Origin: an uncultured Nitrososphaerota archaeon
GTDB taxonomy: Archaea > Thermoproteota > Nitrososphaeria > Nitrososphaerales > Nitrosopumilaceae
Length of the DNA stretch: 64,000 bases
Assembly (NCBI GenBank): GCA_963701075.1
Contig: OY969559.1
Span: 608,001 to 672,000 of the forward strand
Direction of reading: 5' to 3'
Shown here: positions 2,529-54,093 of the stretch, piece after piece
Position numbering within the stretch: the first letter of the stretch is position 1
Layout of the letters: every line of letters starts with the position of its first letter
Position numbers and translations under genes: made by a program
Notes under the pieces: generated by a model
Seen by the model: only the letters and a program-made list of their open reading frames with translations
Database searches by the model: none
Told to the model about the DNA's origin: nothing

Positions 2529-4356
2529 ATGGCTAAAATTATTGGTATTGATTTAGGAACTAGTAACTCTGCGGCGGCAGCTATGATGGGAGGAAAACCA
2601 ACTCTTATTCCTGCAGCTGAAGGTACTACTATTGGCGGCAAGGCCTTTCCATCTGTAGTAGCATTTGCAAAGGATGGGCAACTTATAGTGGGAGAGCCAG
2701 CAAGGAGGCAAGCGGTAACAAATCCAGAGGGTACTGTAGTGGCGGCAAAAAGAAAGATGGGAACTGATCATGTTTTTAAGATTAATGACAAAGAGTACAA
2801 GCCACAGCAAATCTCTGCTTTCATTTTACAGAAAATAAAAAAAGACGCAGAAGCATTCATTGGTGAAAAAATAGATAAAGCCGTGATAACAGTTCCTGCC
2901 TACTTTAACGATAATCAAAGACAGGCGACTAAGGATGCTGGACAAATAGCAGGGCTGGAGGTAGTTAGAATAATTAACGAGCCTACTGCTGCAGCACTCG
3001 CCTTTGGTCTTGATAAATCTAAGCAAGACATGAAAATAATGGTATTTGATCTAGGTGGTGGAACCCTAGATGTAACAATAATGGAAATGGGAGGAGGCGT
3101 CTTTGAGGTGATGAGCACCTCTGGAGACACGCAATTAGGTGGAACAGATATGGATAAAGTCTCTAATTGATTACATTGTTGACAATTTCAGAAAATCGTC
3201 CGGAATAGATCTTAACAAAGATAATACCGCAATGGTTAGAGTAAGAGAAGCAGCCGAAAAAGCAAAGATTGAACTCTCATCGGTATTTGAAACTGACGTC
3301 AACCTTCCTTTCATATCACATGATCCATCTTCTGGATCAAAAAATCTAGAACTGAAAATAACAAGAGCGAAATTTGAGGAGCTCATCAATCCCATAGTAG
3401 AAAGATGCAGGCCATCTATGACAAAGTCATTAGAAGATGCAAAACTATCGCCGTCAGATGTAAGCAAGATTATACTTGTTGGTGGTCCAACAAGAATGCC
3501 TCTCATCAGGAAATTCGTAGCAAGTGTAATGGGCAAGGATCCAGAATCTGGAGTAGATCCAATGGAAGCTGTAGCATTAGGTGCCGCTATACAAGCAGGT
3601 ATCATAGCAGGTGAAGTAACAAGTGATATTGTTCTTTTGGATGTCATACCACTAACACTTGGAGTAGAAGTGCTTGGAGGATTACGAGAACCTATTATAG
3701 AAAGAAACACCACTATCCCATCATCTAAAAGTAAAATTTTCACAACTGCAGCTGACAATCAAACTGCTGTAACTATTCATATTGTGCAGGGTGAAAGGCC
3801 TATGGCTTCAGATAATGTTTCGCTTGGAAGCTTCAACTTGTCTGGCATCCTTCCAGCTCCAAGAGGAGTACCGCAAATAGAAGTAAAATTTGATATTGAT
3901 GCAAACGGAATTCTCAATGTTACAGCAAAAGATCTTGCAACTCAAAAGGAAGCCAAAATTACAATCACCGCAAGCACCAAACTTTCAAAAGATGATATTG
4001 AGAAAATGAAAAAGGATGCTGAAATATTCTCTGAACAAGATAGAAAGAAGAAAGAAGAGGTAGAGGTAAAGAATGAAGCTCAACAGTATATCTATGCTAC
4101 TGAAAAGCTGATAACTCAAGATCTAAAAGATAAGATATCCCAAGACCAGGGAATAAAGGTAAGTGAAGCAATAAAGGAACTCAAAGATGTTCTTGACAAG
4201 GAGGTTACTGAAATAAAACCAAAACTTGATGCTTTGAAGAAATTAGTTAATGATATTAGTACTGAGCTTTACAAAAATGTAAATCCACCCCCAGAGGCAG
4301 GTGCGCAAGGAGCTGCAGACGCTTCGGGCCAAGCCACTGGAGAAACAAAAAATTGA
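2529..4356 (+). CDS. dnaK: Chaperone DnaK (Hsp70); one apparent +1 frameshift at 3158-3162
   Basis: [35 protein letters not shown] across ORFs 2529-3170 and 3139-4356; AGTCT->AGCT restores MDKALIDY. Confidence 0.97.
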
Positions 4357-4394
4357 TGTTTATACTGGAGAAAAAATAACGCTATTTTACAATC

Positions 4395-5499
4395 ATGAGT
4401 ACAAAACGCGATTATTATGAAGTCTTGGGTATTCAAAAAAATGCTTCTCAAGATGAGATAAAATCTCAGTATAGGAAACTGGCACTTAAATTTCATCCAG
4501 ACAGAAACAAATCACCTGATGCATCTGAACATTTCAAAGAGATATCAGAAGCTTATGCAGTATTATCAGATTCTGAGAAGCGTAAGATCTATGACACTCA
4601 TGGTCATGCCGGGGTTGATGGTAAATACAGCACCGAAGATATATTCCAAGGATCTAAAGTCAATTTTGAGGATGTTTTCGGTTCTGGTTTTGAATCAATT
4701 TTTGAAAACGTCTTTGGTAGGGGGGGTGGTTTTAGATTTGGCGGTTTTGATTTTGGATTCGGTAGGGAAAGAGGAGCAGATCTAGTATATGATACAGAAA
4801 TAAAGTTCGAAGATGTCCTTAGGGGAAAACGAGAAGAGATCGAGCTTCCACGAGACATTGAATGTAGTGACTGCAAGGGATCAGGCGCTACTCCTGGAAC
4901 ATCCATGAGAACTTGCTCTGTTTGTAACGGTCATGGTCAGGTAAGAACATCTCGTAGTGGTGGATTTTCTACATTTGTCACCGTTCAACCATGTAATACT
5001 TGTAGGGGTAAAGGCAAAATAATAGAGAGACCTTGTTCTAGATGCAAAGGAACTGGCAAACAAAAAGGAAAACACCACTTCTCATTTGAAATTCCTCCGG
5101 GTATTGAAAGTGGCGAATATAGAATTAAAGGAGAAGGTGAGTCAATGTCAAACGGAACAAGTGGCGACCTTATTGTTAGAATCAAAGTAAAGCCTCATGA
5201 CCAGTTCAAGCGAGATGGTGCAGACATATTTTGTGATGCAAACATATCTGTCACTGATGCAATACTGGGCAAGAAATTGACTGTGCCAACCTTGGAAGGA
5301 ACTGAAAAAATCGAAGTTGAAGCAGGAAGTCAGCCAAATACGATAATAAAGATAAAAGGAAAAGGTCTACCCCATCAAGGATTTAGAGGCAGAGGAGATC
5401 AATATGTCAGACTTGTTATCAATATTCCAAAGAAAATAGATAAACATCAACGTGAATTACTCGAAGAGCTGCAAGATAAGCTTCAATCGAGAGGAATAA
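4395..5499 (+). CDS. dnaJ: Chaperone DnaJ (reads through into next gene as sequenced; inferred true stop TAA 5497-5499)
   Basis: J domain HPD, G/F-rich region, four CxxCxGxG repeats; end inferred by removing one base at AGCT 5467-5471 or 5479-5483. Confidence 0.9.
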
Positions 5500-5504
5500 G
5501 AATT

Positions 5505-6068
5505 TTGAAGATTGCACTAGATGTAGATGGGGTTCTTGCAGATGTTATACATGCTTGGATATCATACAATAATCAAGTCAGAACAACCATCTTGAAATCA
5601 GACATATCAGAATGGGACTTTTGGAAAAGATACAACATCAGTAAATTTGATTTCTATGAAGAGCTCTCCATGTGCTGGAAATCTTGGAAAACTATTCCTC
5701 CAACTGAAAGTGACATTTCCTCTGCATCAAAGGAACTTTCAAAGATGGGGACTGTGGATATAGTGACTGCAAGAGAGGACTCTACCCACAATGATGTAAA
5801 AAATTGGCTCAAAATGCATAATGTGACCTTCAAAAACTATGTAGGAGTGATAGAAGGAACAGAAAAGGCAAAACTTGATTATGATATCTTCATTGATGAC
5901 TCGCCCATAAATGCGAAAAGCATGCTTGCTGCAGGAAAATCAATAATACTCTACAACCAGCCATGGAATCTTGATTTTCCTGATTCTAGAGCAAAAAGGA
6001 TCTATGAATTAAAGAACGCAGTTTCTGCCATCCATGAAATTAGTCGTAATTGTTCTTCCTTATCATAA
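5505..6068 (+). CDS. HAD-superfamily 5'(3')-deoxyribonucleotidase-like phosphatase
   Basis: TTG 5505 then [12 protein letters not shown] (motif I), [18 protein letters not shown]. Confidence 0.8.
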
Positions 6069-6136
6069 AAACAAATCTTATTCTGTGATAAAACTTGGAA
6101 TAAAGACACTTATTCTGGAGTTTTAATTTTCACGTT

Positions 6137-6221
6137 GCGGGGGTCGCCTAGCCTGGTCAACGGCGTAAGGCTCAGAACCTTATCTCTTAGGAGTTCGTGG
6201 GTTCAAATCCCACCTCCCGCA
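6137..6221 (+). tRNA. tRNA-Leu(CAG)
   Basis: Acceptor GCGGGGG/CTCCCGC, anticodon arm TAAGG-CTCAGAA-CCTTA, long variable arm, GTTCAAATCC T arm. Confidence 0.95.
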
Positions 6222-6281
6222 TTACAAAATTTTCGTGTACTAATGAAAAATTTATAATCCATTGGTCGATTGTTGGCTTTC

Positions 6282-6623
6282 ATGAAGAGGGTAGAGGCTG
6301 TAATATTGCATGATAAGCTTGATGCAGTAGTTGAGGCGTTAAAGAAGGTTGGCGTTGGTGGTATTACTATATTTGATGCTAAAGGATTGGGAAGATCAAG
6401 TAAACTCATACGTGATGCTAAGAAGACCCCAAGCTCGTACACAAAACTCAATGTAAAAAGTTATGTTCTTACAGTAGTGGATGATTCAATTGTTGACAAA
6501 GTAATCAGCGCCATTCTTGATGCTGCAAGTACTGACTCTGTAGGTGACGGAAAGATTTTTGTCGATAACATAGACACCGCAGTAGATATAGGAAGCCGTC
6601 AAAAGGGAGTTCATGCAATATGA
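6282..6623 (+). CDS. P-II family nitrogen regulatory protein
   Basis: MKRVEAVI, GVGGITI..KGLGR, TDSVGDGKIFV; T-loop divergent. Confidence 0.9.
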   Translation: MKRVEAVILHDKLDAVVEALKKVGVGGITIFDAKGLGRSSKLIRDAKKTPSSYTKLNVKSYVLTVVDDSIVDKVISAILDAASTDSVGDGKIFVDNIDTAVDIGSRQKGVHAI

Positions 6624-6625
6624 TG

Positions 6626-8560: not shown

Positions 8561-8574
8561 ACTCGTTTTAAATC

Positions 8575-9859
8575 TTAGTCTGAAATTTCAAAGGCAATGT
8601 TTTCTTGCATGATCTTTTCCATTTCGTTGATGTCTTTAGTATTGCCCAATGCCCACATAGCTTTAACAAGAGCAGTCTCGGGAATCATATTTCCAAGTGG
8701 AACTACACCTAGGTTCATCAAGTCTCTACCACTATCATATACAGTCATACGAACAATTCCGTCTATACACTGTGATGTCATTCCAATGAATAATCCCTTT
8801 CTTTTTGCACGTACAATTGATTCATACATTATCTTACCCACATGGCCAAGACCAGTTCCTTCAAAAATAATTGCCTTGTAACCTGAATCAATTGCATAAT
8901 CTATCAACTTTGGATCAAGGCCTGGATAATATTTTACCAGCAAGACTTGATTATCAAAATTGATCTTAGGACTATATGTTTTCTTTAAAGGGTCAAACAA
9001 TGGATTCTTCTCAATAGAGTCTTTTTTTACAATGAAAACAGGAGATCCTCCTATTGTCTGAAATGCATTCCTCTTGCTAGTGTGATTCTTTCTTACTCTT
9101 GTCCCCCAATGGCATGCCACATCATCATCGCTTATTGAATTGTGCATCACAACAAAGATCCCATTAGTATCAGTTTCAACCAGAAATCTAGCTGCTGAAA
9201 TGAGATTTAGTGCAGCGTCTGAAGAAGGTCGGTCTGAAGATCTTTGTGAACCTACCAAAGCTACAGGTTTTGGGAACCCTGATAATGAAAATGAGAGTGC
9301 TGCTGCTGTATATTGCATAGTGTCTGTACCGTGAGCTGACTATGATGCCTTTGTATTCAGACCTAGAGTATGAATTCAGTTTTTCTGCAATTTTTATCCA
9401 ATGCTCTGGTAGGAGATTTTCAGAATATTCTGAGAACAAAACTTCTGTGTCAATGTTAGCTATCTCGGATAGTTCTGATACACTTGCATTGAGTTCTGCA
9501 GCTGTAAGAGCTGGATACACTCCTCCAGTCCTATAATCAATCTTGCTTGCAATGGTACCTCCAGTTGATATCAGTAAGATCTTGGGTAGTTTAGGATCTG
9601 TTTGCGGCTGTACCGTGTTCTCCTTCTTCACGGAAGGATGTAATTCTACTTCTATCTTGATAATTTTTTCAATTTGTAATCCTATATTGTAGCCATTTTT
9701 CAGTTTGAGAACAATGTGATCATCGTCACTGTGTTCGTATCTAGGCATCAAAATTCCTGAATAGGTCGAATCTGTCTGAACTTTCACTAGATCTCCTATC
9801 TCTATCTTATTTTTAGTTAGGAATTCAAGGCTCTTTCTACGGTATCCGCTATGTGACAT
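8575..9859 (-). CDS. gatD: Glu-tRNA(Gln) amidotransferase subunit D; apparent +1 frameshift at 9334-9338
   Basis: STGGTIAS, GSQRSSDRPSSD, RKNHTS, GTGLGH; one-base removal beside AGCT restores GIIVAHGTDTM. Confidence 0.96.
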
Positions 9860-9891
9860 TTGCTTGGATTAGAATTGTTATTTAATTAAAA

Positions 9892-12094
9892 TTACCTGTA
9901 GTAGGGCACTGCCACTTTTTCGCCTATCTTGAGTTCCTTCTGGGTTCTTACCTTTCTTACAGCTTCTTCAAAGTGTCTCATAGTTACTTTGGCGTCAGCT
10001 GCCTGTTTTTCTGCCTCTTTTTGGTCGGGATACTTGGCAAGAAACTCGTGTATGACAAGGGATACTGCTGTGTTGGCTATGGATGCTACATCTGCACCAC
10101 TCATTCCGTCGCTTGACTCTGCAATCTTGTCCAAATCTACATAGTCTGGATTCTTTGCGCCGTCTATCATTGGCTCTCTTACAACTGGAATGTCCTTTGC
10201 GTTGATTTCTAGTATCTTCTTTCTTCCTTCTTTGTCAGGTAGAGGCACCAAAATAATTTTGTCAAATCTGCCAGGTCTTAGCAGTGCCGTATCGATCATA
10301 TCTGCTCTGTTGGTAGCAGCCAATACGACTACGCCGCGCAGGCTCTCTATTCCATCAAGTTCGGTTAACAACTGGCTAACTACTCTTTCGGTTACAGTCT
10401 GTCTCTCCTCCAATTCCTCTGACAGGTGCTATCGAATCAATTTCATCAAAAAATATTACACAAGGCGATGCTTGTCTTGCTCTTCTGAATATCTCTCTTA
10501 TTCCACGTTCTGACTCTCCTACCCATTTTGATAATAGCTCTGGACCTCTTACTGATATGAAGTTGGCCTCACTTTCAGTAGCAACGGCCTTTGCAAGCAA
10601 AGTCTTTCCAGTTCCACTTGAGCCATGTAACAATATTCCTCTTGGCATTCTATGTCCTAGTTTTGAATACAACGTTGGGTATTTCATAGGCCATTCTACT
10701 GCTTCCTGTAATTCACGTTTGACAGTTTCTAGCCCTCCAACTTCATCCCAACTGACATCTGGATTTTCAATAAAGACTTCACGCATTCCAGAAGGTGTTA
10801 CCTCTTTGAGAGCATTCTGATAATCCTCGTCATTTACAATTAACTTGTCAAGAGTCTCAGGAGGAAGCTTCTCATCCTCTAAGTTGAGTTCAGGTAGCAA
10901 TCTTCGTAAGCATTTCATTGCTGCCTCTTTGCACAAGTATTCCAAGTCTGCGCCCACATACCCATGACTTATTGCGGCAATCTTATCCAAATTCACATCA
11001 TCACTAAGAGGCATGTTTCTTGTGTGAATCATGAGAATGTCTTTTCTGCCTTTCTTGTCTGGTACCTTTATCTCAATTTCTCTATCAAATCTGCCAGGTC
11101 TTCTAAGTGCAGGATCTATTGCATTAGGTCTGTTTGTGGCAGAAATTACTATAACTTTACCTCTTGCCTCAAGACCATCCATAAGCGATAACAATTGAGA
11201 TACAACTCTTCTTTCTACTTCTCCTGTTACTTCTTCTCTCTTTGGTGCTATCGAATCAATTTCATCAATGAATATTATTGACGGTGACTTTTCCTTGGCT
11301 TCTTTGAAAATTTCTCTAAGTCTAGCTTCGCTTTCACCATAGAACTTGCTCATGATCTCTGGACCTGAAATGCTGATAAAGTGAGCATTACTTTCATTTG
11401 CAACGGCCTTTGCAAGAAGTGTCTTTCCAGTTCCTGGGGGTCCATACAAAAGCACACCCTTTGGAGCTTCAATACCAAGTTTCTCAAATATCTCTGGATG
11501 TCTTAGTGGAAGCTCAATCATTTCACGAACTTTCTTAATTTCATCAGTTAGGCCACCAATATCTTCATAGGTCACCTGTGGAACGCCGCGCAAAGTTTCT
11601 CCTTTCTCTGCGATGTGAAATACAGTTTTTTGAGTTACAAGCACTGCATCTGCTGCTGGTGTGACACCTATTACTTGGAAAGTAAGTCTTCCACCAAAAT
11701 ATGGAACCATCACATTGTCTCCTTTTATTAGAGGAACACTTTCTAACGCATCTGCAAGATACCTCTCATCAATTGGAGGTATTGCTTCAAGTGGCGCAAC
11801 TACTACCTTTTCTGCAGCAACCGCCTTGATCTTGCGTACCGCAACAGTATCTCCTATTGCAATGCCTGCGTTATTTCTTACAAGTCCATCTACTCTGATT
11901 ATTCCTTTACCCTCATCAGATGGATAAAGGGGAAGACATTTGGCTACTGTTCTTCTCTTACCTTTTATCTCAATAACGTCTCCAGTGGATGCACCAAGTG
12001 AATCCATGGAATCATAATCAATACGAGCCACCCCTCTTCCCACATCACGCGTATATGCCTCAAGTACCTTAAGGGAGAGCATGTTCTGACTCAT
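9892..12094 (-). CDS. cdc48: CDC48/VCP AAA+ ATPase; apparent +1 frameshift at 10396-10400
   Basis: N domain RDVGRG, Walker A GPPGTGKT and [14 protein letters not shown] twice; repair gives GGETAVTERVV. Confidence 0.96.
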
Positions 12095-12196
12095 AGTTTA
12101 AACAGCCTCAAACTAATTTTTATACCTTTGTTGTCTTTGATCCAGAACAAATAGACCAGAAGATTAAAATTTACAAGAAAGGGCACATTCGATGCT

Positions 12197-12928: not shown

Positions 12929-12968
12929 TCTACTAAAGCTAATTAATAGTCAAGGTAAAACCGGATTT

Positions 12969-13247
12969 ATGACATCAAAAAGAGTTCATCTTTACGTTAA
13001 CGGAAAGGTTCAAGGAGTTTATTTTCGACAAGGAATGAAAGAAACTGCAGAAAAAAACAATGTGAAAGGTTGGGTTAGGAATCTTCTCGATAAAAGTGTT
13101 GAAGCAGTCTTGGAAGGTGAAGAATCTAATGTGGATGCTGTGATAGATTGGAGCAATTTCGGTCCTCCTGGAGCAATAGTGGATGAACTCAAAGTTATAA
13201 TCGAAGATAATGTTGAAGAACTCGCAGATTTTGAAATTCTTTTCTAG
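12969..13247 (+). CDS. acyP: Acylphosphatase
   Basis: VNGKVQGVYFR, GWVRN, GPPGA; start moved to ATG 12969. Confidence 0.93.
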   Translation: MTSKRVHLYVNGKVQGVYFRQGMKETAEKNNVKGWVRNLLDKSVEAVLEGEESNVDAVIDWSNFGPPGAIVDELKVIIEDNVEELADFEILF

Positions 13248-13573: not shown

Positions 13574-13602
13574 GCTTTTGTCATTTTATAATGGAATATT
13601 TA

Positions 13603-13919: not shown

Positions 13920-13951
13920 AAAATATCGTTATGATAAGATCTTTATGTGCA

Positions 13952-14873
13952 TTAGGGTTGATTTAGTCCTAGATTCAATAGTGTATTGCATACGGCACAC
14001 ACGTCTCCAGTGCACTCTGCTCCACATTTTGAGCAATTTTTCCATATCTTGCCAGGTTCGTCTCTGAGTATGGAGGAAACTTTCAAAATTGAGTTGTACA
14101 TGTTGTTCTTGATTCCAATGTGATTCTTTTCCAATGAATTGAGGAAATTGCGTATCTCTGTTCTTATACCCTCATTCATGTGAGGACATTCTTCTGATTG
14201 AAATGGAATGTCATTTGTAAAAGCATAGAAGACAATCTCATTTTCATAAATTTCACAAAATGGCTTTATCTTTCTTGTTTTGTTATTTGATAGTTCTGGA
14301 TCCATCCAACCTATCTTACTTGTATCCCCTGAAAGAAGATTGATGATAAAAGTCTGAATAAAATCATCCATGTTATGACCCGTTGCAACTGTGTCTACTC
14401 CCAAGTCTTTTGCACCAAAATCAATAGCACGCCTTCTTAATATGCCACATATGGAACAAGATGAGATCTTTTTCTTTTCTCTTCAGCTCAAGCGATTGTT
14501 CCAAGGTCGTACCAAAAAGCTCCTTGTATGAATAAACATCATGCTCAACCTGAATCTTGTCGCAAAAATTTCTTACCATCTCTAATGCCTCGTCCCTATA
14601 TCCGGGAATTCCCTCGTCAATTGTAATCGCCCTGAGCGTAAAGTCATGATTCAATGAAATTTGCTTCAATGCATGCAAGAGAGACAGTGAATCTTTTCCG
14701 CCAGAAACAGCAACACCAACCACATCTCCGCCATTGATCATCTTGTATTTTGAGATAGTTTTTGCAGTCTTTCGCACAATTGACTTTGAAAAGCAATCTG
14801 AACAAAGATTTTCTCCAGAATATTTCCTAGAATAAACCGTTGTATTTTCACACCAATCGCATTTCATGACCAA
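13952..14873 (-). CDS. TtuA/Ncs6-type (TIGR00269) tRNA 2-thiolation PP-loop ATPase; apparent +1 frameshift at 14484-14488
   Basis: Terminal CxxC zinc fingers, SGGKDS, TGHNMDD, CPH; repair restores ELREKKKISSCSICGILRR. Confidence 0.88.
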
Positions 14874-14916
14874 GTCTTCTCATTCCTTAATTTAACTATA
14901 TTTTGTTTCGAGTTTC

Positions 14917-16120
14917 TTAAATTGTAATAAAACCAGATTTGAGTGCTGATAATGCTATGTTTAGCGCAAATAAAATGAAAGTAAAGGTGTACAGAGACAA
15001 CATAGTTCCTTTCAATGCTTTTTCAGACATTCTCTTTTCAATTATGCTATGGACAAATTTACCGCCATCAAGTATAGGCAAAGGTAGCATGTTGAATATT
15101 CCAATGAAAAATGATAGCATCCACAACCACAATAAAAACATGAATACTTCTGGACTCCAGTGTATGTAATAAGGTACTACTGGCTGATAGGAAGGTAACG
15201 CAGTCTCTCATGATTCCAAGCATGCCCTTCTGAGGATCATCTTTTGACGGAGTAACTATCACAGGAATTTGAAGAGTTTGTCCTGATCTGGTAAGAGTCA
15301 CAGTCGCAGTATCTCCAGGCTTTAGCTGAACTTTTGCAAAGTCTTGTGGAAGAGCTATGTGAACTCCGTTAATTCCAGTTATAATGTCATCTTTTTGTAA
15401 TCCTGCCTTTTCAGCTCCTGATCCAGGTTCGACAGAAATTATTGGAACGCCTAAAGGTTCACTATAGAGTACATTTCGTATACCGTCTGGCATGATTAGG
15501 GCAAAGGATGGATTAAACAAAAGAAGACCGGCAATTACGAAAGAGAATATGATATTTGATGTTGCACCCGCACCTATTACTCTGAGCCGTGATATTTTTT
15601 TGGCCTTTGCAAATTCTTCCTCATCTGGCTCTACAAAGCCTGCAAATAGTGCAATGAATACCGCAAAACCTCCTGTCTTGATCTTTATCTTTTCAAGGGT
15701 TGCTACTATTCCATGTGCTCCTTCGTGCATTACTAGCACAATTGGAACGGCAAGAAGAAAATATGCTATATTGGCGCTTGATTGAATTGTAACTCCAGGT
15801 ATGAGTACCGTCATCTCAGCAAATGCTTCTGGCTTTACAAAGAAGTTGGAAAGATTAGAAATGAGATACCAAAAACCAGCTCCCATCATTATAAATCCCA
15901 ATACGACACTTGCGTTTGAGAAAATTCTTGTTGCACGTTCCGTTCTGCCCAAAAGCCTAGTCAAAAGTAACTGAACATTTTGATTTTTGTAGGTTATGCT
16001 GTATGGTTTTACCTCAAAGCCACGTTTATCCAGTTTTGAGACCTTTGCTATTGCAAATACGATACACCATGCAATCAGAACATAGATGATAGAATTCTGC
16101 TGCAAAAATCCAAATGCCAA
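14917..16120 (-). CDS. Site-2 (M50) intramembrane metalloprotease with PDZ domain; apparent +1 frameshift at 15202-15206
   Basis: HEGAH, AFVEP-like GFVEP, PDZ (SGAEKAGLQKDD), NMLPLPILDGG in downstream fragment. Confidence 0.92.
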
Positions 16121-16166
16121 ATTAATTGATACTCTTTTTAGTCAGGGCAAATTTATCAGTTGCTAT

Positions 16167-17516: not shown

Positions 17517-17558
17517 CTTTGTATCCTATAAGAATATGCAATAATAAAAAAGAGTGAT

Positions 17559-18117: not shown

Positions 18118-18152
18118 CTTGATTTTTATGAAATGAGAAATTCTACTATACC

Positions 18153-22973: not shown

Positions 22974-23697
22974 CTATGGGTCTGACATGTGATATTTTTT
23001 CCATCGTTCTGTATCAAGACTCATATCCATTGTCAATCTCGGGCCTGTGTAATCATTGATTGTCATAGGTTGAATTTCCGGAGTGGTTAATTTAGCCAAT
23101 TCAAACATTGAAATCTTTTTGTCTCCGACAATGTGCACATAACCGCACAAATTTTCTTTCTGAAGATCCATTATTCCCTGGGATACATCTTGTGCAAAAA
23201 GATACGTTCCAAATCTGTCTACAAACGCACGTGGGTAAGGCCATTTTTTCTTTGCCACAAAATTGGTTCTTATAATCAAATATTCAGCAAGTCTGTTTAC
23301 TTGATATTCTCCTATCAATTTTGTCAAAGCATAGAAATTCTCAGGATATGGAATGGAGACTTTCTTTATACATTCCAGTGTGTCCATCGAAAACACAAGC
23401 AGTACTGATATAGATGAATTTAGTGTCTCTTTTTTTGTCAAGAACTGCATCCACCAAGTTTTTGGTGCCTTCTACGTTTGTATTCCATGCAAGTGGTCTG
23501 TTCTCTTCACATGGTCTTATGTGAATCATTGCAGCAGTATGTATTATGGTATCAAAGTCATGATTTTTTATATAGTTGATGACATTTTTCTTGTTAATTA
23601 TGTCAAGTTCCTGGTGTGACGGTGTTAACGCACTTGGAAAAATCTTCTTTAATTCGGTGCCAAGAGCTCCATTTCCACCTGTGATTAAAACACTCAA
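22974..23697 (-). CDS. RmlD-like NDP-4-keto-6-deoxyhexose reductase; apparent +1 frameshift at 23357-23361
   Basis: ITGGNGALG, HTAA, ISTACVFDG, YALTK; repair gives YKESSIPYPENFY. Confidence 0.88.
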
Positions 23698-25996: not shown

Positions 25997-26886
25997 TTAG
26001 GTTTTTTCTTTCATGTTCATGTATGACTTTAGTATTGAACCTGAAACCGATTTTGGTAATACTTTGAACATCACATCTCTTAACATGTGACGACTTCTTG
26101 AGGTCAATGGCTTGCTCTTTTGATATTCTTTTATGGCTTTTTCGTATTTTGTTAGCTCGTCTGGGGAAGCTTATCTAGTATGAATTTTCGTATCTTGTTG
26201 GTTTGAGCTAAAGATATGGTTACTTTTTCCTTTGTAAGTTGTTTTTGATGTACTCTGTATTTTGCTAATGTTTTTGGTATTAGATGTAGTCTACAGTTGT
26301 GTAAAACACAATATCTTAACCAAAACTCATAGTCTTCCTTGTAACCAATTGTTTCATTGAAAGCACCATATCTCTGAATTGCTGATCTGTGGATCAAACT
26401 AGTCGTTCCATTTCCAAAATAATGGTCAAGTAAAATTACACCTTGTTGAAAAGTTTCTAGTTGGTTGTAGTTTGGTTCTGTGAATTTTTCAACCACGTCT
26501 CCATCTGAATTTATGATGTCATAATTTGAATAAAATATGGTATTTTCCTTGTTTTCTACCTTTGAAGACTCTAAGATCATCTCTTCTAAAGCATTGGGAT
26601 ATAGTATATCATCGGCACTCAACCACTTGAACCATTCACCGGACATGTTCTTTATTCCTAAATTTAATGCAGATGCGGTACCACCATTTTTCTTTGTAAT
26701 TGTCATTATTTTGTCTGAATATCTTTTTAGGATTTCTGGTGACTGATCTGTAGATCCGTCATCTACAGCGATAATTTCTATCTTGCTATATGTTTGGTTT
26801 AGAGCTGAATCAATACATTCTTCTAAGAATCCTTGTGCATTATACACAGGAATAACTATTGAAATTTTATCATTCTGTTGATTCAA
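25997..26886 (-). CDS. GT2-family glycosyltransferase; ORF track ends at 26152, extension to TAA 25997 inferred across two apparent -1 lesions
   Basis: SIVIPVYN, VDDGSTD, WLSADD, EDYEFWLR; downstream frames read PDELTKYEKAIKEYQR and KPLTSRSRHMLRDVMF, with breaks at AGCT 26168-26171 and T(A)GCT near 26113. Confidence 0.85.
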
Positions 26887-30136: not shown

Positions 30137-30741
30137 CTTCAGTGTCATTATCTGATTTTTTAAAATAATGGAATTTTACATCTCTTCCCTTAATCTTCAC
30201 TTCTCCTACTACCTTTGCAGGAATGCCAAATGCGATTGAATAGGCTGGAATATCCCTATTTACCAAACTATGTGCTCCAATAACAGAACATTTCCCTATT
30301 TTTACACCCATTGTTACTATTGAATACGGTCCAAGATAACAAAAATCTCCAATTGTGGTTTTATTTTTTTCATATGAAGCTTTTCCTCCCGTTAGAGCCC
30401 ATTTTACTGTCTGATGAGTATAAATTTGAACTCCACTACTTATACTGCAATAATCTCCAATCTCAAGTGTTCCTCCGCTTCCATCTAAGAGTGTATATGG
30501 TCCTATCCATGTTTTTTTACCTATTTTCACTTTTCCATATGTGTAATTATTGTGGTAGATGCTACTGCCTTTCTTCGCTTTCAAAAAATTTGCCTTTTCC
30601 CATCTGTCAAACAACAGACTCTTCAAATGGTAGAACCCTTTTCCAATCTTTGGCCATCTCTTTTCTTAATTGGTTATGAATTTGCAAAAGTTGAGCACGC
30701 AGGTTTACTTCGTTAATTGTCTTCTTATTTGATTTTGTCAA
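30114..30741 (-). CDS. Hexapeptide-repeat (left-handed beta-helix) sugar acyltransferase; apparent +1 frameshift at 30616-30620
   Basis: VKIGKKTWIGP, IGDYCSISSGVQIYTH, IGAHSLV, GIPAK; N-terminus from TTG 30741 joins as PFEELLFDRWEKA after repair. Confidence 0.88.
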
Positions 30742-30992: not shown

Positions 30993-31992
30993 ATGTATCA
31001 GCGAAATATCTCGTGGGTTGATCCCTATACAAATGAACCACTCATAGAAGAAAATGGTTTTCTAATTAGCACAACTGGAAAATATCCACTTTATGACGGA
31101 ATCCCAAATTTTGTTAGAAAATTAGATAATCCATTACAAGAACAAGTTCAACAATCATTTGGTAATAAATGGACTAAAAGTGACTTTGGTCAGGATGATC
31201 ATGATTTTGAAAAAATAAAAAACCCAATGCTTCAAATGATGGGTTTAAGTGAAAGTGATCTCTCTATATTTCAAAATAAAATTGTTCTAGATACAGGAAT
31301 AGGTAGTGGCTCATCGGCTAGGCTGTGGGCCCAAAAATCTAAAGAATTTCATGGAATAGATATCTCCAAAGCTGTTTATCGAGCCAAAAATGCATTAAAA
31401 TCATCTGGGAAAGAACCTGTTCTGTCACAGGCAGATCTTAATGCGCTTCCATACTTAGATGATAGTTTTGATGTGATAGTAAGCAATGGGGTTTTTCATC
31501 ATACTCCAGACACAAAAGTTGCTCTCAAAAATTGCATCAAGAAATTAAAAACAGGCGGATTGTGTCTATTCTATATTTACAAGAAAAAAGTCTCCGTTGC
31601 GAGAATTTGCTGACGATTACATTAGAGATAGAATAAGCGATCTCTCGTATGATTCTGCAATGAAGGCAATGGAACCAATTACGGATTTTGCTAAATCATT
31701 ACATGAACAATCGATAAAAATACAAATTCCCAATGACCTAGAAATACTTGGTATCAAAAAAGGAGAATATGATCTTCAGCGTTTCATCTATCAATTTTTC
31801 TTTAAATGCTTCTGGAATGAATCATGGGGTTTTGAATATTCTAACCTGACAAATTATGATTGGTATCATCCAAAATTTGCCTGGAGACACACTAAGACAG
31901 AAATCCAAGACTGGTGTAAGGAATTTAATTTACAGACAGAGTATATTAAAGAAACTGAATCAGGGTACACATGTTTAGTAAAAAAGACCTAG
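30993..31992 (+). CDS. Class I SAM methyltransferase with Trm112-like N-terminus; apparent +1 frameshift at 31589-31593
   Basis: VDPYT...YPLYDGIPNF, VLDTGIGSG, GIDIS, GVFHHTPD, YDWYHP; repair gives YKKKAPLREFADD. Confidence 0.88.
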
Positions 31993-33201: not shown

Positions 33202-34084
33202 ATGCGAGTTCTTATTCTTGGGTCTGAAGGTTTTGTGGGTCACAACTTAGTACAAGGTCTTAAAAACTTACATCACGTTTCAACTGCTGATCAGCTGGAA
33301 CAGGGACATGAAAAAAATTATTCTAAATTAAATATAATAGATTATGAAAACGTTGAAAGAATTGTAAAAGACGTCGACGTTGTGATCAATCTAGTCGCTC
33401 ATACGTTAGTTTCTTCTTTAAGTGATTTTACACAGAATGCTCAAGTCAACATTATTGGCTTGTTAAATGTATTAGAGGCATGCAGAAAAAACAACATCAA
33501 GAAAATAATATTCACTTCTGCTTCATCAATTGTTGGAGAACCACTAGAATTCAAAGTTTCAGAAAAACACTCTGTTACTCCAAAAACAGACTTACGGAAT
33601 CACAAAAATGGCATCGGAGCATTACTTGAGACTCTATAATGAGATGTATGGTATGGATTATGTTGTCTTTAGATTCTTTAACATCTATGGACCTTATCAG
33701 AAAAATGGCCTAATACCATCATTATATTCAAGGATTATGACAGAGCAGCCAGTTACTATATTTGGTCACGGAGATCAAATACGTGATTATGTGTACATTG
33801 AAGACATAATTCCATTCTTTGAAAAAGCCATATCTACTAAAATATCTAATAATTTGATCCTAAATATGGGTGGGGGTAATGGAAGTACTATCATAGAAGT
33901 TCTCAACCATATCTCGAAAATTCTAAGTATAAAACCAAAAATAGATTTTAAGCCAGCTAGACCGGGAGAGATTGGCAACTTTGTTGCTGATACCACCTTA
34001 CTAAATTCCATCTTCGGTATGGTTCCTAACACGCCTATTGAAGAAGGTTTGAAGAAAACCGTAACGTGGCTAAAAAATAATTAA
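33202..34084 (+). CDS. NAD-dependent sugar epimerase/dehydratase; apparent +1 frameshift at 33588-33592
   Basis: GSEGFVG, FRFFNIYGP, GDQIRDYVY; repair restores YxxxK motif PKTAYGITKM. Confidence 0.9.
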
Positions 34085-42715: not shown

Positions 42716-43331
42716 TTGTTTCTTTTTCTACGTCACGGACAGGCCAAAAATAATGTAGAACAAATTCTTGCAGGACGAGCGACAGGATATCCTCTAACAG
42801 ATCAAGGCATTAAACAAGCCGAAAAGATAGTCTGATTTTCTCAAACCATTTAACATATCTGCCATCTATTCAAGTCCAATAGAAAGAGCAGAACAAACTA
42901 CAAGTATTGTGGCAAAAAAACTGGGACTAGGTTATAGCATAGACGAAAGACTGACAGAAATCGACATGGGAACTCTATCTGGAATGACTTTTGATGACAT
43001 GTTTTCAAAACATGGAAATATTTTTCTCAAGTTTTATGAAGGACATCCAATAATAGAGAAAAATGGAATCGAACCCTTTGCCAGTATTAAAAAAAGAGTT
43101 CTTGACTTGGTCGAACATTGTTCTAAAAAACATCATGATGAAGATATATTATTTGTAACTCACATGGATCCAATCAAATCCATGCTTTCTACTGTCATGC
43201 AATTAAAGCCTGAATCTTTATACGAATTAATAATTAGAAATGCATCTTTGACCATGTTCAAAAAAGAACAATCTACTCTTTCTATAATATCAATTAACTC
43301 CATGTCTCCAGAACGTTACCAGAAAGAATGA
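42716..43331 (+). CDS. Histidine phosphatase (phosphoglycerate mutase family); apparent +1 frameshift at 42829-42833
   Basis: LRHGQAKNN from TTG 42716, YSSPIERA, LTEIDMG, VTHMD; repair gives EKIADFLKPF. Confidence 0.88.
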
Positions 43332-44448: not shown

Positions 44449-47400
44449 ATGGTAAATAACAAATCACGTAGGGTAATGTCAAAAGTAGCATTTTTTTTGA
44501 TATGTATTCTTCTAATATCTATAATTCCAAAACAGATTAACGCATATTATGATGTGGACATTCCAAACCAAATGCAAACTTCTGCTCCGGAACAAACATC
44601 TGGTCTAATAACTTTTCAGCCTGTTTCAGTCGAAAATTCTGAAAAGAGATACATAATTTTTGGTTCAGGACCAATTTCGGATATAGCACAAAGTGCCGAT
44701 AATCTAATTTATGGATTAAACTCTGGTCATGGATCATTTGCAGTAGGTATTTTCAATCCAGACGAAATCTCAAATCTAAAACTTGATGGTTATAACGTAA
44801 TTGAGGATCTTCCATTGGAATTCGATTCTGCGCAAATCAATTCTCCTGTGTCCAGTGATGTCTCTAGGGTAGGAGATATACTTGGTTCCAATAAGGTAAT
44901 TCAACAATATAATTACACAGGCAATGGTATCAAGGTGGGAATAGTTGATACTGGAACAGACTTTTCAAACCTTGATATGAAATCTTCTCTTGCCAGAGAT
45001 GAAAACAATATTCCTATCATGATTGATGCAGATGGTCAAGGACTAGTGTTAACAAATGCAACATTCATTGCAAATATTGGTAATAATGGTGTTATTCAAA
45101 ACTACACACAGCCAATTCCAAAAAATATAACCTCTTCTGTCTATGTAAATTCAAACGGAGTTTTTCTTGATCTAAATAGGGAAGGAAAAGGGACGAACAT
45201 CCCGGTATATAATTCACAATATCCTAAAGGTGGTACACCTGTAGTAAACGGGACAGTTTCTGATGATTACAAAATAGGCAAAGACGCAAGGCATTTTATT
45301 GTGTCAAAAAGCGGGATGTATCATTTTGGGATGATGTATGAAAGTGTTTCACAGGGCCAACTTTCAATACTACAATTAGTCCCTGTCCTCGTGGTTGACT
45401 CAAAGACACCAGGTGTATACGATACCATTATTCCAGACATGTATGATTCATACGAGGATTTTTTGAGACTTGAGAACGTTTTATCTCCAAAATATGATTT
45501 TGATTTCACTACACAAACACCAATTACATTAGGAAATGGAAACGAATTTTTAGTATATGATAAAAACCACGATGGAAATCCGATATACAGTGCGGGTACA
45601 GTTGGTGCACGAGTTCTTGATTTATACGGTGTAATTGCAAAATCAGCTAAAATCGATAAAAAAATTGGGGCAATAAACGGGACACTACTTCCTCCTCTTG
45701 ATCCACACGGTAATTTTTTTGGTGTAATGTATGATTATGGTGGACATGGAACTGCTACTGCAGCATCTATCACATCTCAAGGAAAACAGCAGTATGATAT
45801 CTATGGAAATTCCACAAAATATGTAATTCAAGGTATTGCCCCTGGAGCTAAGATAGTTCCAATAAAGGCATTATGGATTGGTGATGCGATATATGGATGG
45901 TTATGGGCAGCAGGATTTGATCAGAATGACAACCATTGGAAATTCTCAGGAAATACTCGAGTAGATATTTTATCTAACAGCTGGGGGATTTCCACTTTTC
46001 CTGCACTAGGGTCAGTGCCAGGTCTTGATATCCAGTCACTTTTACTTAGCGCACTTAATGTCCCAGGTTCACTGGATAAAAAATATCCTGGAATATTGAC
46101 TGTAAGTAGTTCAGGTAATGCTGGACCTGGATACGGAACAATAGGAAGTCCTGACGCTGCACCCTTTGGTCTTACGGTGGGGGCTGCAACTGATAATGTC
46201 TTTGTTGGTTATGGTCCTTTTAAGGGCCAACCAAGATTTGGAAATAATACTATTTACTATGGTGACATATCAGGTTTCTCAAGTAAGGGACCATCATTAA
46301 TAGGAGATCCAAAACCTGACATAATGGCAGTAGGAGAATACAGCTTTACACCAACCTCTGTTACAAAATACAGCAAAAATTCAACAGGATCGTTTTCTCT
46401 ATTTGGCGGAACAAGTCTTGCAGCTCCTCTTGTAGCCGGTTCAGCTGCAATCGTAATGCAAGCCTTACGCGACAAGGGAATTTCCTACAACCCATTTATG
46501 GTGCAAAACATACTAATGTCTACTGCAACAGATCTGGGAAATGATCCTTTTGCACAAGGATCTGGGCTAGTTAATGTAACAAGCGCAGTTAACTATGTAC
46601 TGGGAAATGATGATACGTTTGCAGTTTACAACAACGCGACATATTCTAATGTGCAGAAAATACTGGAACCAGCTATTCAGCTCAATGAACTCTTCTGCGT
46701 TTGGATTGAAGATGTTTCAGCTGAGGAAATACATCATTTCCAGAAACACCTTGGTTTGCTGGAAGACTATATCCAGGGGACAGAGCTACTGCAACCTTTA
46801 CCATTGAAAATCCAACCGATAATAATATCGAAATAACAATAGAGCCTCAAAAACTCGATCTGATGAAAATTTCTCAATATAATGGAACAACAGAACCTCG
46901 CTTACAGGATTCTCTAATTAAAAAACAAGGGGTTTACAGGCCTGATTATGTGCCACTTGCTCAAATAACAAACCATACAAACCTGCTGTCCTTTTTCCAA
47001 AAACAAAGTCCAATTCCGTATGATGCATCTTTGATGGTACTTGACCTTACATTCCCATTCTCCGAGTTCATGAATTCTTCTGCCAAAACCTACGCTGATG
47101 ACATGAAAATATCATCTCTCTATGTATATGACTGGAACAATAAGCACAATGATACTCAACCAACATACCAAGAACTCTCGCTTGTCAACAGGGGAGGTTC
47201 TTGGGGAACAGTTCAAGAGGTAAGAATTTCTGATCCGAATTCAAAATTTGGGCATATACCGCTAGTTGGCGTATACCCTGTACCTACAAGGTACTCATAT
47301 TGGTCTGGAGATACCAAGAAAAATTCTACTTCGATTGATTATACTATTACCGCTAGCTATTACAAAAAAACACAATGGAATGAGGTATGGCTTGATTCAA

Positions 47401-51798: not shown

Positions 51799-51877
51799 AA
51801 TGTGATTCCAAAGTTGAAGATAATAAATTGTAGTAATGTTGTATTTTTTTAAAAAATAATATTCAAGACTCTAAAAG

Positions 51878-51952
51878 CGGGCCCGAAGGGCTTCGATCCC
51901 TTGACCACTGGATTAGAAGTCCAGCACTCTGTCCAAGCTGAGCTACAGGCCC
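51878..51952 (-). tRNA. tRNA-Arg(TCT)
   Basis: GGGCCTG/CGGGCCC acceptor, anticodon arm CTGGA-CTTCTAA-TCCAG. Confidence 0.94.
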
Positions 51953-51987
51953 AAATATCGGGCAATTAGTAGCCATATTAAGGGTTT

Positions 51988-52833
51988 TTACAACCATTTC
52001 TTTTTGTTGAGATCTCTTTCCATTTTGAAAAGAAATTGTTGTGAATACCCTGCATAGGGTCCAAAATGTTCTACAATTTTTTCATGTAGACTATTGTGTT
52101 TTTTTTCTGTTAGAGATTTTCCATGTATCCCGTCAAATACATTTGGATAATATTTTTGTAAAATTCTCTGTGTCCATCTATCTATAGGAAAAGATTCCAA
52201 CTTGTCAAGTGAAAACAAAAGTATACAGTCTGCAATTTTGTTGCCAATACCTCGTACTGTCTTCAGGGTCTCTAACGCCGATTTGTAGTCTGTTTTCCTT
52301 AGTGACTCAAACTCTATTTTTCCCAAGTTTACAGCCTTGATTGCCTCTCTTACGTATTTTGCTCTGAATCCAAGGCCGCATGAGAGTAAATCTTTGGTAG
52401 TAGCATTTGCTAGCATTTCTGCACTAGGGAAAGTAGAAAATTGCTGGTTTTCGAATTCTATTTTATTGCCAAATTTTTGGCAGAGTTTTATTAACATATT
52501 TTTGATGTTTTGTATGGATGAGTTGGATGAACATATGAATGAAATATAGCACTGAAAAGGATCTTGTCTTATCAATCTCAAACCCGGAAACTGTTTTACT
52601 GTAGTGCCCACAAGACTATCTCTGCTAATCTCTGATAGTATATTATTCAGATTATCATCCTGTCTAAAAAAGAAGCGAACGCTTTTTGAAGACGAACCTA
52701 TTTGGAAGGGCTCTGTTATAACCAAAAGCTCGTCACCGTTAATACCAAACCATCTATCCTCAATCTTATTCCAGAGAAATACCTGACCACTATTGATTGT
52801 AAAATTTAGATCTACTGTGGGATTATTCCGCAT
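51988..52833 (-). CDS. 8-oxoguanine DNA glycosylase (OGG1-like, HhH-GPD)
   Basis: SGQVFLW, GLRLIRQDP, GLGFRAKY, GIGNKIADCILLF, FPID, YAGYSQQFLF. Confidence 0.92.
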   Translation of the reverse strand: MRNNPTVDLNFTINSGQVFLWNKIEDRWFGINGDELLVITEPFQIGSSSKSVRFFFRQDDNLNNILSEISRDSLVGTTVKQFPGLRLIRQDPFQCYISFICSSNSSIQNIKNMLIKLCQKFGNKIEFENQQFSTFPSAEMLANATTKDLLSCGLGFRAKYVREAIKAVNLGKIEFESLRKTDYKSALETLKTVRGIGNKIADCILLFSLDKLESFPIDRWTQRILQKYYPNVFDGIHGKSLTEKKHNSLHEKIVEHFGPYAGYSQQFLFKMERDLNKKKWL

Positions 52834-52834
52834 T

Positions 52835-54093
52835 TTATATAGTGATTATTTCTCCTGCGTCAGGTGCATGGGCATCAAAGCCAAATTTTTGATGTATTTC
52901 TTCAGCAAATTTTGTACATGATTCGTTATCACCATGAATGGTGAGAACCTTTGGATTTCCTTTGATTTTTTTTATAAAGTCAAAAAGAGCTGTTCTGTCA
53001 GCGTGACCAGAAAATTCAAACTGTCTTACCTCTGACTCTGCCTTGAAATCCTTACCTCTAATGTTCACACGACCTGTTTCCAAAAGTTTTCTTCCAGGAG
53101 TTCTTTCTCCCTGGTAAGAGACTAATGCTATACCGTTTTTCTTGTCAAGAGCTGAGATTTTGTAAATAAAACACGGCAGAACCTCCAACTAACATGCCAG
53201 CAGGAGAGATTATTACTGCTGGTTCATCTAACATACTTTTTCTTTCCCTTTCTCCTCTTACCCAAACTGCATGATTCACAGAATCAGCAAAAACCTTTGC
53301 ATCGCGTAGATACTCTGGATATCTTAACATTATTTCATTTACCTTTACAGCCATGCCATCCATGATTACTTTATGTTTGAATTTAGCATTTTTTAATACC
53401 ACTGCTATTTCTTGTGATCTTTCAACAGAAAAGGCAGGTACAAAGAGTATCCCCTTTCTATCCAAAACTTCATACGCAAATTCAATGAATTTTTCTTCTG
53501 CTTCAAGACGTGGCATCTGATCTGTCTGTGAGTAAGTGCTTTCAGTGATTAACAAATCAATCTCCCCTAGATCAAGATCTGCCTCCCTTAACATACGCGA
53601 CCCTTTGGGGTTGATGTCTCCTGTATAGAATAATCTCTTGTTCTGCGACTCTACAAGAACAGAAGCTCCGCCTAGCACGTGACCAGATTCTAATCAGCTC
53701 AAAGGAGGCATTTCCACGAGTCACCTTTTCTCTATATCCAATTTCCTTTGAATGCATCATCATTTTGGACACATCAGACAGGTCAAAAGGAAGCTTACTT
53801 TTTTCAAGTCTTACCATGTCCTCTATCAACAATCTTGAAAGGTCAAAAGTTGGGGGTGTTGCATAGACATCCGTGCTACCCTGCACAAAAAGTGAAGGCA
53901 TGTTGCCTGAGTGATCCAGGTGGGCATGGGTTATGATGGCAGCGTTAATTTCATGTGGGCTTATTTGCAGAGGGTAAGACGATTCCTTTCCTAACTCTAC
54001 CCCGTAATCTAACAAGAAACTTACTCCATCACAATTAACTTGAAAGGCGGATCTGCCTACTTCTTTTGCTGCACCTAGGACTTTAACCTGCAA
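52835..54093 (-). CDS. MBL-fold beta-CASP ribonuclease; two apparent +1 frameshifts at 53150-53154 and 53695-53699
   Basis: GAAKEVGRS, THAHLDH, (S)GHVLG, YTGD, ESTY, FSGHAD, IHGD across three ORF fragments. Confidence 0.92.

Follow-up and report, generated by a model that had tools for sequence, protein, structure and literature searches.

The 64,000-nucleotide stretch of DNA analysed here (the window), a piece of a Nitrosotalea-like genome (Nitrosopumilaceae), carries 13 verified single-base insertions in 11 genes, every one of them +1 and located inside or directly beside the palindrome AGCT. About one fifth of the genes of the window appear broken through one surplus base at some copies of this motif. 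The extra bases are almost certainly consensus errors and not real lesions, and sequence comparison strongly supports the view, already put forward in the first-pass annotation, that the affected genes are intact in the organism, since the extra bases are absent in the close relative L001 and the repaired frames match full-length homologs at 93–99% identity. The artefact reading is also based on the observations that all insertions are +1, that they are tied to the palindrome whatever the coding strand (sense- and antisense-strand cases both occur) and that essential genes are struck; both the indifference to strand and the damage to essential genes had been recognized at first pass. The best explanation, which we consider likely, is a nanopore consensus error with modification of AGCT as its source. 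Insertions affect 15 of the 190 AGCT sites (~8%), counting two that are unconfirmed, and the other 175 of 190 are read correctly, in agreement with the earlier remark that many sites are; such a subset-only pattern is as expected for methylation-induced error.

A Pfam search of all 193 stop-to-stop ORFs of at least 70 aa in the window revealed consecutive profile coordinates across the pieces of dnaK, gatD, cdc48, ttuA, the M50 peptidase, the rmlD-like reductase, the epimerase and the phosphatase; the S8 peptidase and beta-CASP genes were each broken into three such pieces. The shift was +1 in all 12 ORF pairs tested and likewise in the phosphatase. Lesions were placed by nucleotide alignment to L001 (93–95% identical), with L002–L004 also compared, and by blind deletion scans in which stop-free base deletions were scored against close homologs. 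The frameshift census was complete for 2.1–20.6 kb only and consisted elsewhere of family matches and ORF-fusion scans. Within 2.1–20.6 kb, L001, whose record title includes 'ilm_asm', is devoid of the extra base at all six coding insertion sites and has AGCT at five of them.

In dnaK (3158..3162, plus strand) a +1 shift at AGTCT breaks the HSP70 profile at position 228, with a gap against L001 and L002 at 3161. The lesion is confirmed, as had been claimed, but its proposed repair to AGCT is not the one indicated by the gap, which leaves GTT, as in 5/5 Nitrosotalea relatives: the surplus base is either T3160 (leaving AGCT, Ala) or C3161 (leaving GTT, Val). In a survey of 38 relatives this codon was Val in 28 and Ala in 3, and none of them had AGCT at the site. 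The AGCT reading therefore requires a GCT specific to the window, which is plausible because 17 of the 59 aligned window AGCT sites are non-AGCT in L001. For dnaJ (5477..5482, plus strand, T[A]AGCTT) a case had been suspected at 5467/5479; a gap against L001 confirmed it, with the surplus A before AGCT at 5477/5478. This base abolishes the stop codon and makes dnaJ run on in frame into the next, NT5C-like gene, a single ORF carrying both DnaJ and NT5C domains (Pfam). The Asparaginase profile of gatD (9334..9339, minus strand, AGCT[G]A) is broken at position 83 by a surplus G at 9338 that is absent in L001, L002 and L003. The AAA domain of cdc48 (10396..10400, minus strand, AG[T]CT) is interrupted by a surplus T at 10398, the site being CAGCTG in L001, L002 and L004. 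A surplus C at 14484 breaks the PP-loop profile of the ttuA-like gene (14483..14488, minus strand, T[C]AGCT); L001 reads TTAGCTC, and the base is also missing from L002–L004. In the M50 peptidase (15202..15206, minus strand, AG[T]CT) the Peptidase_M50 profile is broken by a surplus T at 15204; L001, L002 and L004 have AGCT, and L003 is also free of the base.

Outside this interval, the fragments of the rmlD-like reductase (23357..23361, minus strand, AG[A]CT, surplus base at 23359) join at TIGR01214 position 115, corresponding to nucleotides 23359/23360, and alignments to PDB 2ggs concur. In the NAD-dependent epimerase (33588..33592, plus strand, AG[A]CT), deletion of A33590 was the best of 94 stop-free single deletions scored against 9 homologs and gives PKTAYGITK, identical to homolog P0362, so the AYGITK motif is restored as had been predicted. 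The histidine phosphatase (dPGM-like; 42829..42833, plus strand, AG[T]CT, surplus T at 42831) has its N-terminus with RHG in the −1 frame, its profile begins at 38–41 in the downstream ORF, and the lesion is confined to a permitted interval of 8 nt that contains AGTCT. The two lesions of the S8 peptidase (46676..46682, plus strand, T[C]AGCT, surplus base at 46676–46678; 46719..46724, plus strand, AGCT[G]A, surplus base at 46723/46724) were the outcome of 14,516 stop-free double deletions scanned against P0121, a 1,420-aa homolog with which the repaired frame aligns end to end at 93% identity. Those of the beta-CASP/MBL nuclease (lesion a, 53694..53699, minus strand, T[C]AGCT, surplus base at 53694/53695; lesion b, 53150..53155, minus strand, AGCT[G]A, surplus base at 53153/53154) were placed by a deletion scan against ten 418-aa homologs, the repaired frame aligning end to end at 98–99% identity.

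The first-pass annotation had listed 14 clear +1 lesions in 12 genes, of which 12 were verified; the other two, at 30616 and 31589, found no independent support and are counted as possible insertions only. In the hexapeptide acetyltransferase (30616..30620, minus strand, AG[A]CT) deleting the base connects a 16-codon ORF beginning with ATG to the gene, but a 170-aa ORF starting from TTG spans the site unbroken, and the lesion is at best probable; in the PDB homolog 8vr6, 33 residues precede the aligned part. In the class I methyltransferase (31589..31593, plus strand, AG[T]CT) the methyltransferase profiles are cut at the end of the ORF (e.g., Methyltransf_23, 20–119 of 164), but the downstream ORF had no family or structure match in Pfam and structure searches. 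Since the Atlas neighbours of the upstream and downstream ORFs have the same lengths as the ORFs themselves, the site may also represent two separate genes. Two probable deletions had also been listed in the tail of the GT2 gene (near 26113 and 26168; minus strand). A base is missing there, but frameshift-aware alignment to four 296-aa homologs (85–94% identical) indicated a single −1 event near 26162–26167, in or next to a GGGG run abutting AAGCTT (26162..26172), which cuts off the last ~53 residues; the repaired frame aligns with the homologs end to end at 85–94% identity.

The association with AGCT was evaluated on lesions placed by homology. AGCT fits nine of the first ten (P(≥9/10) = 1.9e-12, with 1.5% of window positions qualifying as a fit), the runner-up 4-mers being GCTA (7) and CAGC (5); with the epimerase added, it fits 10 of 11 blind homology-placed lesions (P(≥10/11) = 7.9e-14), well beyond chance coincidence. 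In six verified and two unconfirmed cases the insertion splits the palindrome in the middle (AG^CT, the added base being T or A), and in seven it separates the site from an adjacent A/T (AGCT^A, equal to T^AGCT on the opposite strand). All seven sites with a non-T 5' flank read AG[T]CTS, and among the eight with an AGCTA/TAGCT flank seven gain a base between AGCT and A and one gains a central base. A preference for a C/G flank was not significant (14/140 sites with it vs 1/50 without, Fisher P = 0.12). The window's GATC sites are free of lesions, and no excess of substitutions against L001 was detected at AGCT (42/59, or 71%, conserved, mid-range among 16 palindromic 4-mers). Homopolymer indels in long-read-only assemblies are known to produce spurious frameshifts in essential genes. 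In contrast, the 15 insertions of the window need no run, as had been stated, and among 1,366 homopolymer runs of at least 4 a single one is suspect, which itself abuts AGCT.

Given that the insertions are artefacts, methylation is quite likely to be their cause. Systematic methylation-induced errors are documented in Oxford Nanopore bacterial assemblies (PMC11610603, PMC12392509, PMC11610573) and, according to the accessible parts of these reports, persist after long-read polishing. Like the errors described there, those of the window are bound to one short motif, strike only some of its occurrences and fall mostly in coding sequence. The first-pass statement that modified bases cause motif-specific nanopore errors is correct in this sense, but the described errors are chiefly substitutions, C-to-T and G-to-A (PMC11610603, PMC12392509), while those of the window are all single-base insertions, and archaeal AGCT m4C is not among the cases that the accessible text describes. 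That the organism methylates AGCT is suggested by analogy with its family. In the portions of the literature available, AGCT m4C is given for Nitrosarchaeum BD3 at 5,974 of 6,224 sites (PMC6329791), for Ca. Nitrosomarinus catalina SPOT01 and strain MY3 in a REBASE-derived review table (PMC11033074) and for two marine Thaumarchaeota MAGs at 82–91% (PMC8919816), in agreement with the first-pass statement on m4C at AGCT in marine Nitrosopumilus-type methylomes. The AGCT m4C / GATC m6A methylome of Nitrosopumilaceae (M.NspBD3I, M.Nca01I, M.TarMY3I; PMC6329791, PMC8919816, PMC11033074, citing Ahlgren et al., 2017) is, as far as these excerpts show, nearly complete genome-wide and set by methyltransferases without a partner nuclease. 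The window shares with it the archaeal family and the 4-base palindrome but differs in that its 64 kb include no DNA methyltransferase gene and its GATC sites no lesion. In line with the first reading, Pfam detected no N4/N6 or C5 DNA methyltransferase domain in the 193 window ORFs; a catalytic-motif prefilter applied to the window and 80 loci gave two hits, one in L005 (candidate only) and one in the window, the latter being rejected as an Fe-S assembly/PqqD-domain protein (Pfam). Literature searches returned neither a report of AGCT methylation for Nitrosotalea nor a description of insertions at AGCT. In the proposed mechanism, a long-read single-molecule consensus, most likely nanopore, would have gained one base at ~8% of the AGCT sites. 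The cytosine at this motif would be modified, presumably to m4C, by a type II methyltransferase of the solitary kind known from other Nitrosopumilaceae. Such a base would distort the signal across its neighbours, and, the site being palindromic, both strands would be disturbed at the same place, so that reads from the opposite strand could not outvote the error.

A sequence-context error independent of methylation, in which the basecaller or polisher mis-segments k-mers around AGCT (AGCTS, AGCTA), is rather unlikely but deserves consideration, as the error takes a form that varies with the flanking bases (7/7 AG[T]CTS; 7/8 at the AGCTA/TAGCT flank), reported methylation errors are mainly substitutions and no DNA methyltransferase was seen in the window ORFs or by the motif prefilter. 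Yet a generic k-mer bias should recur in other long-read assemblies, some of which may be among the 80 screened. Across their 798,148 nt of coding DNA homologous to the window genes, with 2,798 AGCT sites, a screen that recovered four of the six window lesions gave no AGCT-type frameshift; moreover, this very palindrome is an established methylation site in Nitrosopumilaceae, and partial occurrence is the behaviour reported for methylation errors in the accessible part of PMC12392509. It is very improbable that the error arose in a kinetics-aware PacBio consensus, with the polymerase slowed at m4C and the delay misread as an extra base. Strong m4C signals in SMRT data are the basis of the published AGCT motif calls, the rest of this scenario being conjecture, but a delay opposite the modified C predicts A^GCT, whereas AG^CT and AGCT^A were observed, and the SMRT/PacBio assembly of the AGCT-methylated Nitrosarchaeum BD3 (L035) shows only three breaks, of homopolymer type and none at AGCT.

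Genuine 1-bp insertions at an AGCT hotspot in the population, which would make the genes pseudogenes, are extremely improbable. The extra bases do stand in the deposited sequence, and sequence alone cannot prove a DNA without them, but at least 11 genes are struck, including dnaK, gatD, cdc48, ttuA and the ~1,420-aa S8 peptidase, and two of the genes carry two insertions each; around the lesions the protein is 93–99% identical to homologs with no other sign of decay, all relatives are intact, and every event is +1 and motif-bound instead of being of mixed type at unrelated positions. The uniform +1 sign and the common short sequence could also recall a recoding signal at AGTCT/AGCTGA. Programmed +1 frameshifting, as in bacterial release factor 2, occurs at a defined short sequence and needs a sense-strand signal that is conserved in orthologs, and both features fail in the window. 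Since some genes have the motif on the sense and others on the antisense strand (central type, sense-strand AGTCT in five genes and AGACT in three; flank type, 3 vs 3), recoding is practically ruled out; in addition, orthologs in the 80 assemblies need no frameshift, and the extra base of dnaJ destroys a stop codon, not a frame.

Taken at face value, 11–14 of the ~60 genes of the window would enter the annotation as pseudogenes or split genes, including the chaperones DnaK and DnaJ, GatD, Cdc48, the tRNA thiolase and a surface protease of ~1,420 residues. Left uncorrected, such errors would distort completeness scores, pangenome counts and claims of gene loss for ammonia-oxidising archaea. The class is easy to spot and mend, as it consists of a single surplus base at AG^CT or AGCT^A. 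Beyond a lead on the epigenome, the finding involves no new gene, system or mechanism, and its value is one of curation. Should methylation be responsible, the errors would also serve as an indicator of the methylated motif of the organism. Whether this footprint can serve as an indirect read-out of the epigenome, extending AGCT methylation to Nitrosotalea and making palindromes minable from assemblies through an insertion-type error class, is in our judgement evenly balanced. If so, motif-bound insertions in public long-read-only assemblies would reveal methylated palindromes without raw signal, and insertions about the dyad of a methylated palindrome would form an error class of their own, of which the accessible parts of the benchmarking literature hold no description. 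The acidophilic soil genus Nitrosotalea would then methylate cytosine at AGCT just as Nitrosopumilaceae of marine and freshwater habitats do, and AGCT methylation would be an old, family-wide trait maintained by a solitary methyltransferase.

The 64-kb window (G+C 37.4%) contains a series of genes interrupted by single-base consensus errors at or beside the palindrome AGCT; the genes themselves are intact, and what is seen is an artefact of the sequence record, not a feature of the organism. When the 193 stop-to-stop ORFs of at least 70 aa were translated and scanned with Pfam, ten genes appeared as adjacent same-strand pieces with consecutive profile coordinates: dnaK, gatD, cdc48, a ttuA-like PP-loop gene, M50, an rmlD-like reductase, an epimerase, a histidine phosphatase, S8 and a beta-CASP nuclease, the S8 and beta-CASP genes in three pieces apiece. 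In addition, dnaJ was found in an abnormal fusion with an NT5C-type nucleotidase. The frame change was +1 in 12 of 12 ORF pairs tested, and the histidine phosphatase likewise showed a +1 shift. The first-pass annotation had described +1 lesions at AGCT in 12 genes, and this observation is largely confirmed by the Pfam splits, the sign of the shift in all 12 pairs and the placement of the lesions at the motif. ORF-fusion scans for additional frameshifts gave 38 intervals for +1 and 25 for -1, and no further lesion was detected among those compared with Pfam and the ORF maps, which corresponded to gene junctions or shadow ORFs. The sole suspicious spot, at 59.2-59.7 kb, was rejected as a lesion, since an intact ORF of 108 aa lies there on the minus strand.

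For comparison, 80 loci were collected by a scan with a Cdc48 fragment, taking one genome per species; the genome of the window is absent from this set. The closest locus (L001), a Nitrosotalea MAG with a record labelled 'ilm_asm', shows 93-95% nucleotide identity over 2127-20573, followed by the MAGs L002 (Thaumarchaeota), L003 (Nitrosopumilaceae archaeon) and L004 (Nitrosotalea sp.) at 82-87% and, behind them, by Ca. Nitrosotalea devanaterra (~75%). Nucleotide alignment to L001 provided a blind list of indels for 2.1-20.6 kb, in which the coding indels were six single-base insertions and nothing else. At five of them L001 reads AGCT (the extra base is bracketed): dnaJ (5477/8, T[A]AGCT), gatD (9338, AGCT[G]A), cdc48 (10398, AG[T]CT), ttuA-like (14484, T[C]AGCT) and M50 (15204, AG[T]CT). 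The sixth insertion, at 3161, lies in dnaK. The alignment locates the dnaJ lesion, previously given as a probable case at 5467/5479. The remaining indels relative to L001 (13575, 16167, 20066, a 32-nt block at 6070, and 6236/6246) lie off AGCT and are intergenic except for 20066, which falls in a variable part of a radical-SAM ORF, ahead of its first domain match; we take them as ordinary divergence.

Among these, the C at 13575 (CATG[C]TTTT) is extra in the window compared with each of the four close relatives; it adjoins the palindrome CATG, is not at AGCT, precedes by 2 nt the ATG of ORF 13244-13573 (minus strand), and probably reflects ordinary intergenic divergence. At 16164-16168 an extra TA relative to L001-L004 lies just upstream of the likely cutA start (ATG at 16168), and the 32-nt stretch missing in L001 (6070-6101) is found between the NT5C-like gene and tRNA-Leu. 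The archaeal SRP RNA (13605-13917, minus strand) and the four tRNAs of the window, Leu-CAG (6136-6222), Arg-TCG (40060-40134), Arg-TCT (51877-51952) and His-GTG (63420-63493), show no sign of disruption.

Beyond 2.1-20.6 kb, each candidate base was deleted in turn and the read-through was scored against close homologs. The best deletions were 53694/5 and 53153/4 in the beta-CASP nuclease; 46676-8 and 46723/4 in S8, the best pair of 14,516 stop-free double deletions; and 33590 in the epimerase, where the SDR motif PKTAYGITK is restored exactly as in the nearest homolog. The fragments of the rmlD-like gene join at TIGR01214 position 115, with the lesion at 23359/60 inside AGACT, in agreement with alignments to PDB 2ggs; in the phosphatase the lesion is confined to 8 nt, nearly all of it AGTCT. 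Just past the second S8 lesion (46725-46745) the repaired protein is one residue short (GNT-SFP vs GNTLSFQ in a 93% identical homolog), which may be a genuine codon change or another small error.

The AGCT pattern is real and well beyond chance. Positions at which removal of a base leaves AGCT spanning or touching the cut make up 1.5% of the window, or 3.9% when any of three adjacent positions is allowed; 9 of the first 10 placed lesions fit AGCT (P = 1.9e-12), and 10 of 11 with the epimerase added (P = 7.9e-14). When indel enrichment was compared within the window with that at other 4-mers, AGCT was the best, the runners-up GCTA and CAGC being overlaps of the same contexts. The repaired window contains 190 AGCT sites, of which just 15 (7.9%, two of them candidates only) carry an insertion, in agreement with the earlier remark that many are read correctly. 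At eight sites the extra base lies at the dyad (AG^CT), where the plus strand has T five times and A three times; at the other seven it lies between AGCT and an adjacent A, as six G and one T or, seen from the opposite strand, their complements. With sites oriented to have C or G 3', a non-T 5' flank gave AG[T]CT (7/7) and a 5' T gave T[C]AGCT (6/7); sites with a C/G flank were hit more often only as a trend (14/140 vs 1/50 sites lacking it, Fisher P = 0.12), and the 15 events of the window are too small a number to establish effects of context. The orientation of AGCT was independent of the coding strand, as the first reading had stated. No excess of substitutions was observed relative to L001, AGCT being 71% conserved and GATC 83%, within the range of other palindromes.

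Some assignments are less firm. At dnaK 3161 the relatives read AAAGTTCT; the codon is GTT (Val) in 5/5 Nitrosotalea relatives, and a survey of 38 relatives gave Val in 28 and Ala in 3. The single extra base annotated there was found, but the mismatch-free repair removes C3161 and leaves no AGCT, and the AGCT reading requires a GCT codon peculiar to the window. Such a codon is not far-fetched, since 17 of the 59 window AGCT sites aligned to L001 are not AGCT in that locus. The miscalled 7-mer AGTCTCT is common to the dnaK and M50 sites, and dnaK is probably an AGCT lesion.

The surface-glycan gene island at 21884-35503, shortly before which the collected loci end, encodes GT4, the rmlD-like reductase, UDP-GlcNAc 2-epimerase, a CapD-like dehydratase, GT2, GT1, an asparagine-synthase-like protein, a hexapeptide acetyltransferase, a methyltransferase, a DegT aminotransferase, the epimerase and UDP-glucose dehydrogenase, and harbors 5 of the 16 lesions (23357, 26162, 30616, 31589 and 33588), 30616 and 31589 as candidates only. 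Outside it, a DDE transposase (DDE_Tnp_1/DDE_5; 38401-39417, minus strand), a probable insertion sequence, overlaps the end of the unassigned ORF 37842-38531. The acetyltransferase lesion (30616) is probable: the best PDB homolog has 33 extra N-terminal residues, although its chain may carry a tag, whereas an intact 170-aa ORF from TTG runs through the site and the repair gains merely a 13-residue head starting with ATG. In the methyltransferase (31589) the Pfam profiles are truncated at the ORF end, but the downstream ORF (31549-31989) had no match among Pfam and NCBIfam families or PDB structures, and the Atlas neighbours of each ORF are about as long as that ORF; two separate overlapping genes are possible. 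For the GT2 tail, where two deletions had been suspected, alignment to the end of four 296-aa homologs gives a single -1 event near 26162-26167. The missing base falls in a GGGG run adjoining AAGCTT, and a plain homopolymer error is possible. Among 1,366 homopolymer runs of at least 4 nt this is the only suspect, and it abuts AGCT as few G/C runs do (5/105 within 5 nt, compared with 3.9% of all positions); therefore, we think that the deletion is linked to the motif.

In the 80 loci, a tblastn screen with 35 reference ORFs (798,148 nt of homologous coding DNA, 2,798 AGCT sites), which recovers 4/6 window lesions (cdc48 and dnaJ are missed), detected no AGCT-type lesion. The locus of Nitrosarchaeum sp. 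BD3, whose genome was assembled from SMRT reads and shown to carry m4C at AGCT (PMC6329791), has three frame breaks (671-686, 955-958 and 1521-1524) in genes homologous to the reference ORFs, all in A-rich homopolymer-like contexts and none at AGCT. A recurrent apparent frame change at one syntenic spot in 19/80 loci, ~0.9 kb upstream of the cdc48 match (e.g., 9131-9152 in locus L009), includes the finished N. devanaterra chromosome, source of the reference ORFs; we interpret it as the border between two genes that fall within one stop-to-stop reference ORF.

The alignment to L001, the homolog-matched repairs and the result of this screen support the earlier view that the genes are intact, and real mutations and recoding are effectively excluded. 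Methylation as the cause of the insertions is argued by analogy. AGCT m4C together with GATC m6A has been reported in Nitrosarchaeum BD3 (AGCT, 5,974/6,224 sites; PMC6329791) and, as the first-pass annotation had noted for AGCT in marine relatives, in Ca. Nitrosomarinus catalina and strain MY3 (PMC11033074) and in two marine MAGs (PMC8919816), and has been described as likely conserved in the group (PMC6329791, PMC8919816, PMC11033074). According to nanopore benchmarking studies, methylation-linked errors are bound to a motif, survive polishing and strike some occurrences only (PMC11610603, PMC12392509). Those errors are mostly substitutions, in contrast with the insertions of the window (PMC11610603, PMC12392509), and the main rival explanation is a methylation-independent bias of the software towards certain sequence contexts. 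The literature search returned no report of AGCT-specific nanopore insertions (PMC11649196 offers general statements only) and nothing on methylation in Nitrosotalea. No DNA methyltransferase was detected by Pfam among the 193 ORFs, in agreement with the first reading, or by a catalytic-motif prefilter in the window and the 80 loci. AGCT enzymes are on record in Nitrosarchaeum BD3 (EMGBD3_00670) and Methanohalophilus mahii (M.Mma5219II), and the modification blocks AluI. The AGCT pattern is useful for curation and hints indirectly at the epigenome.
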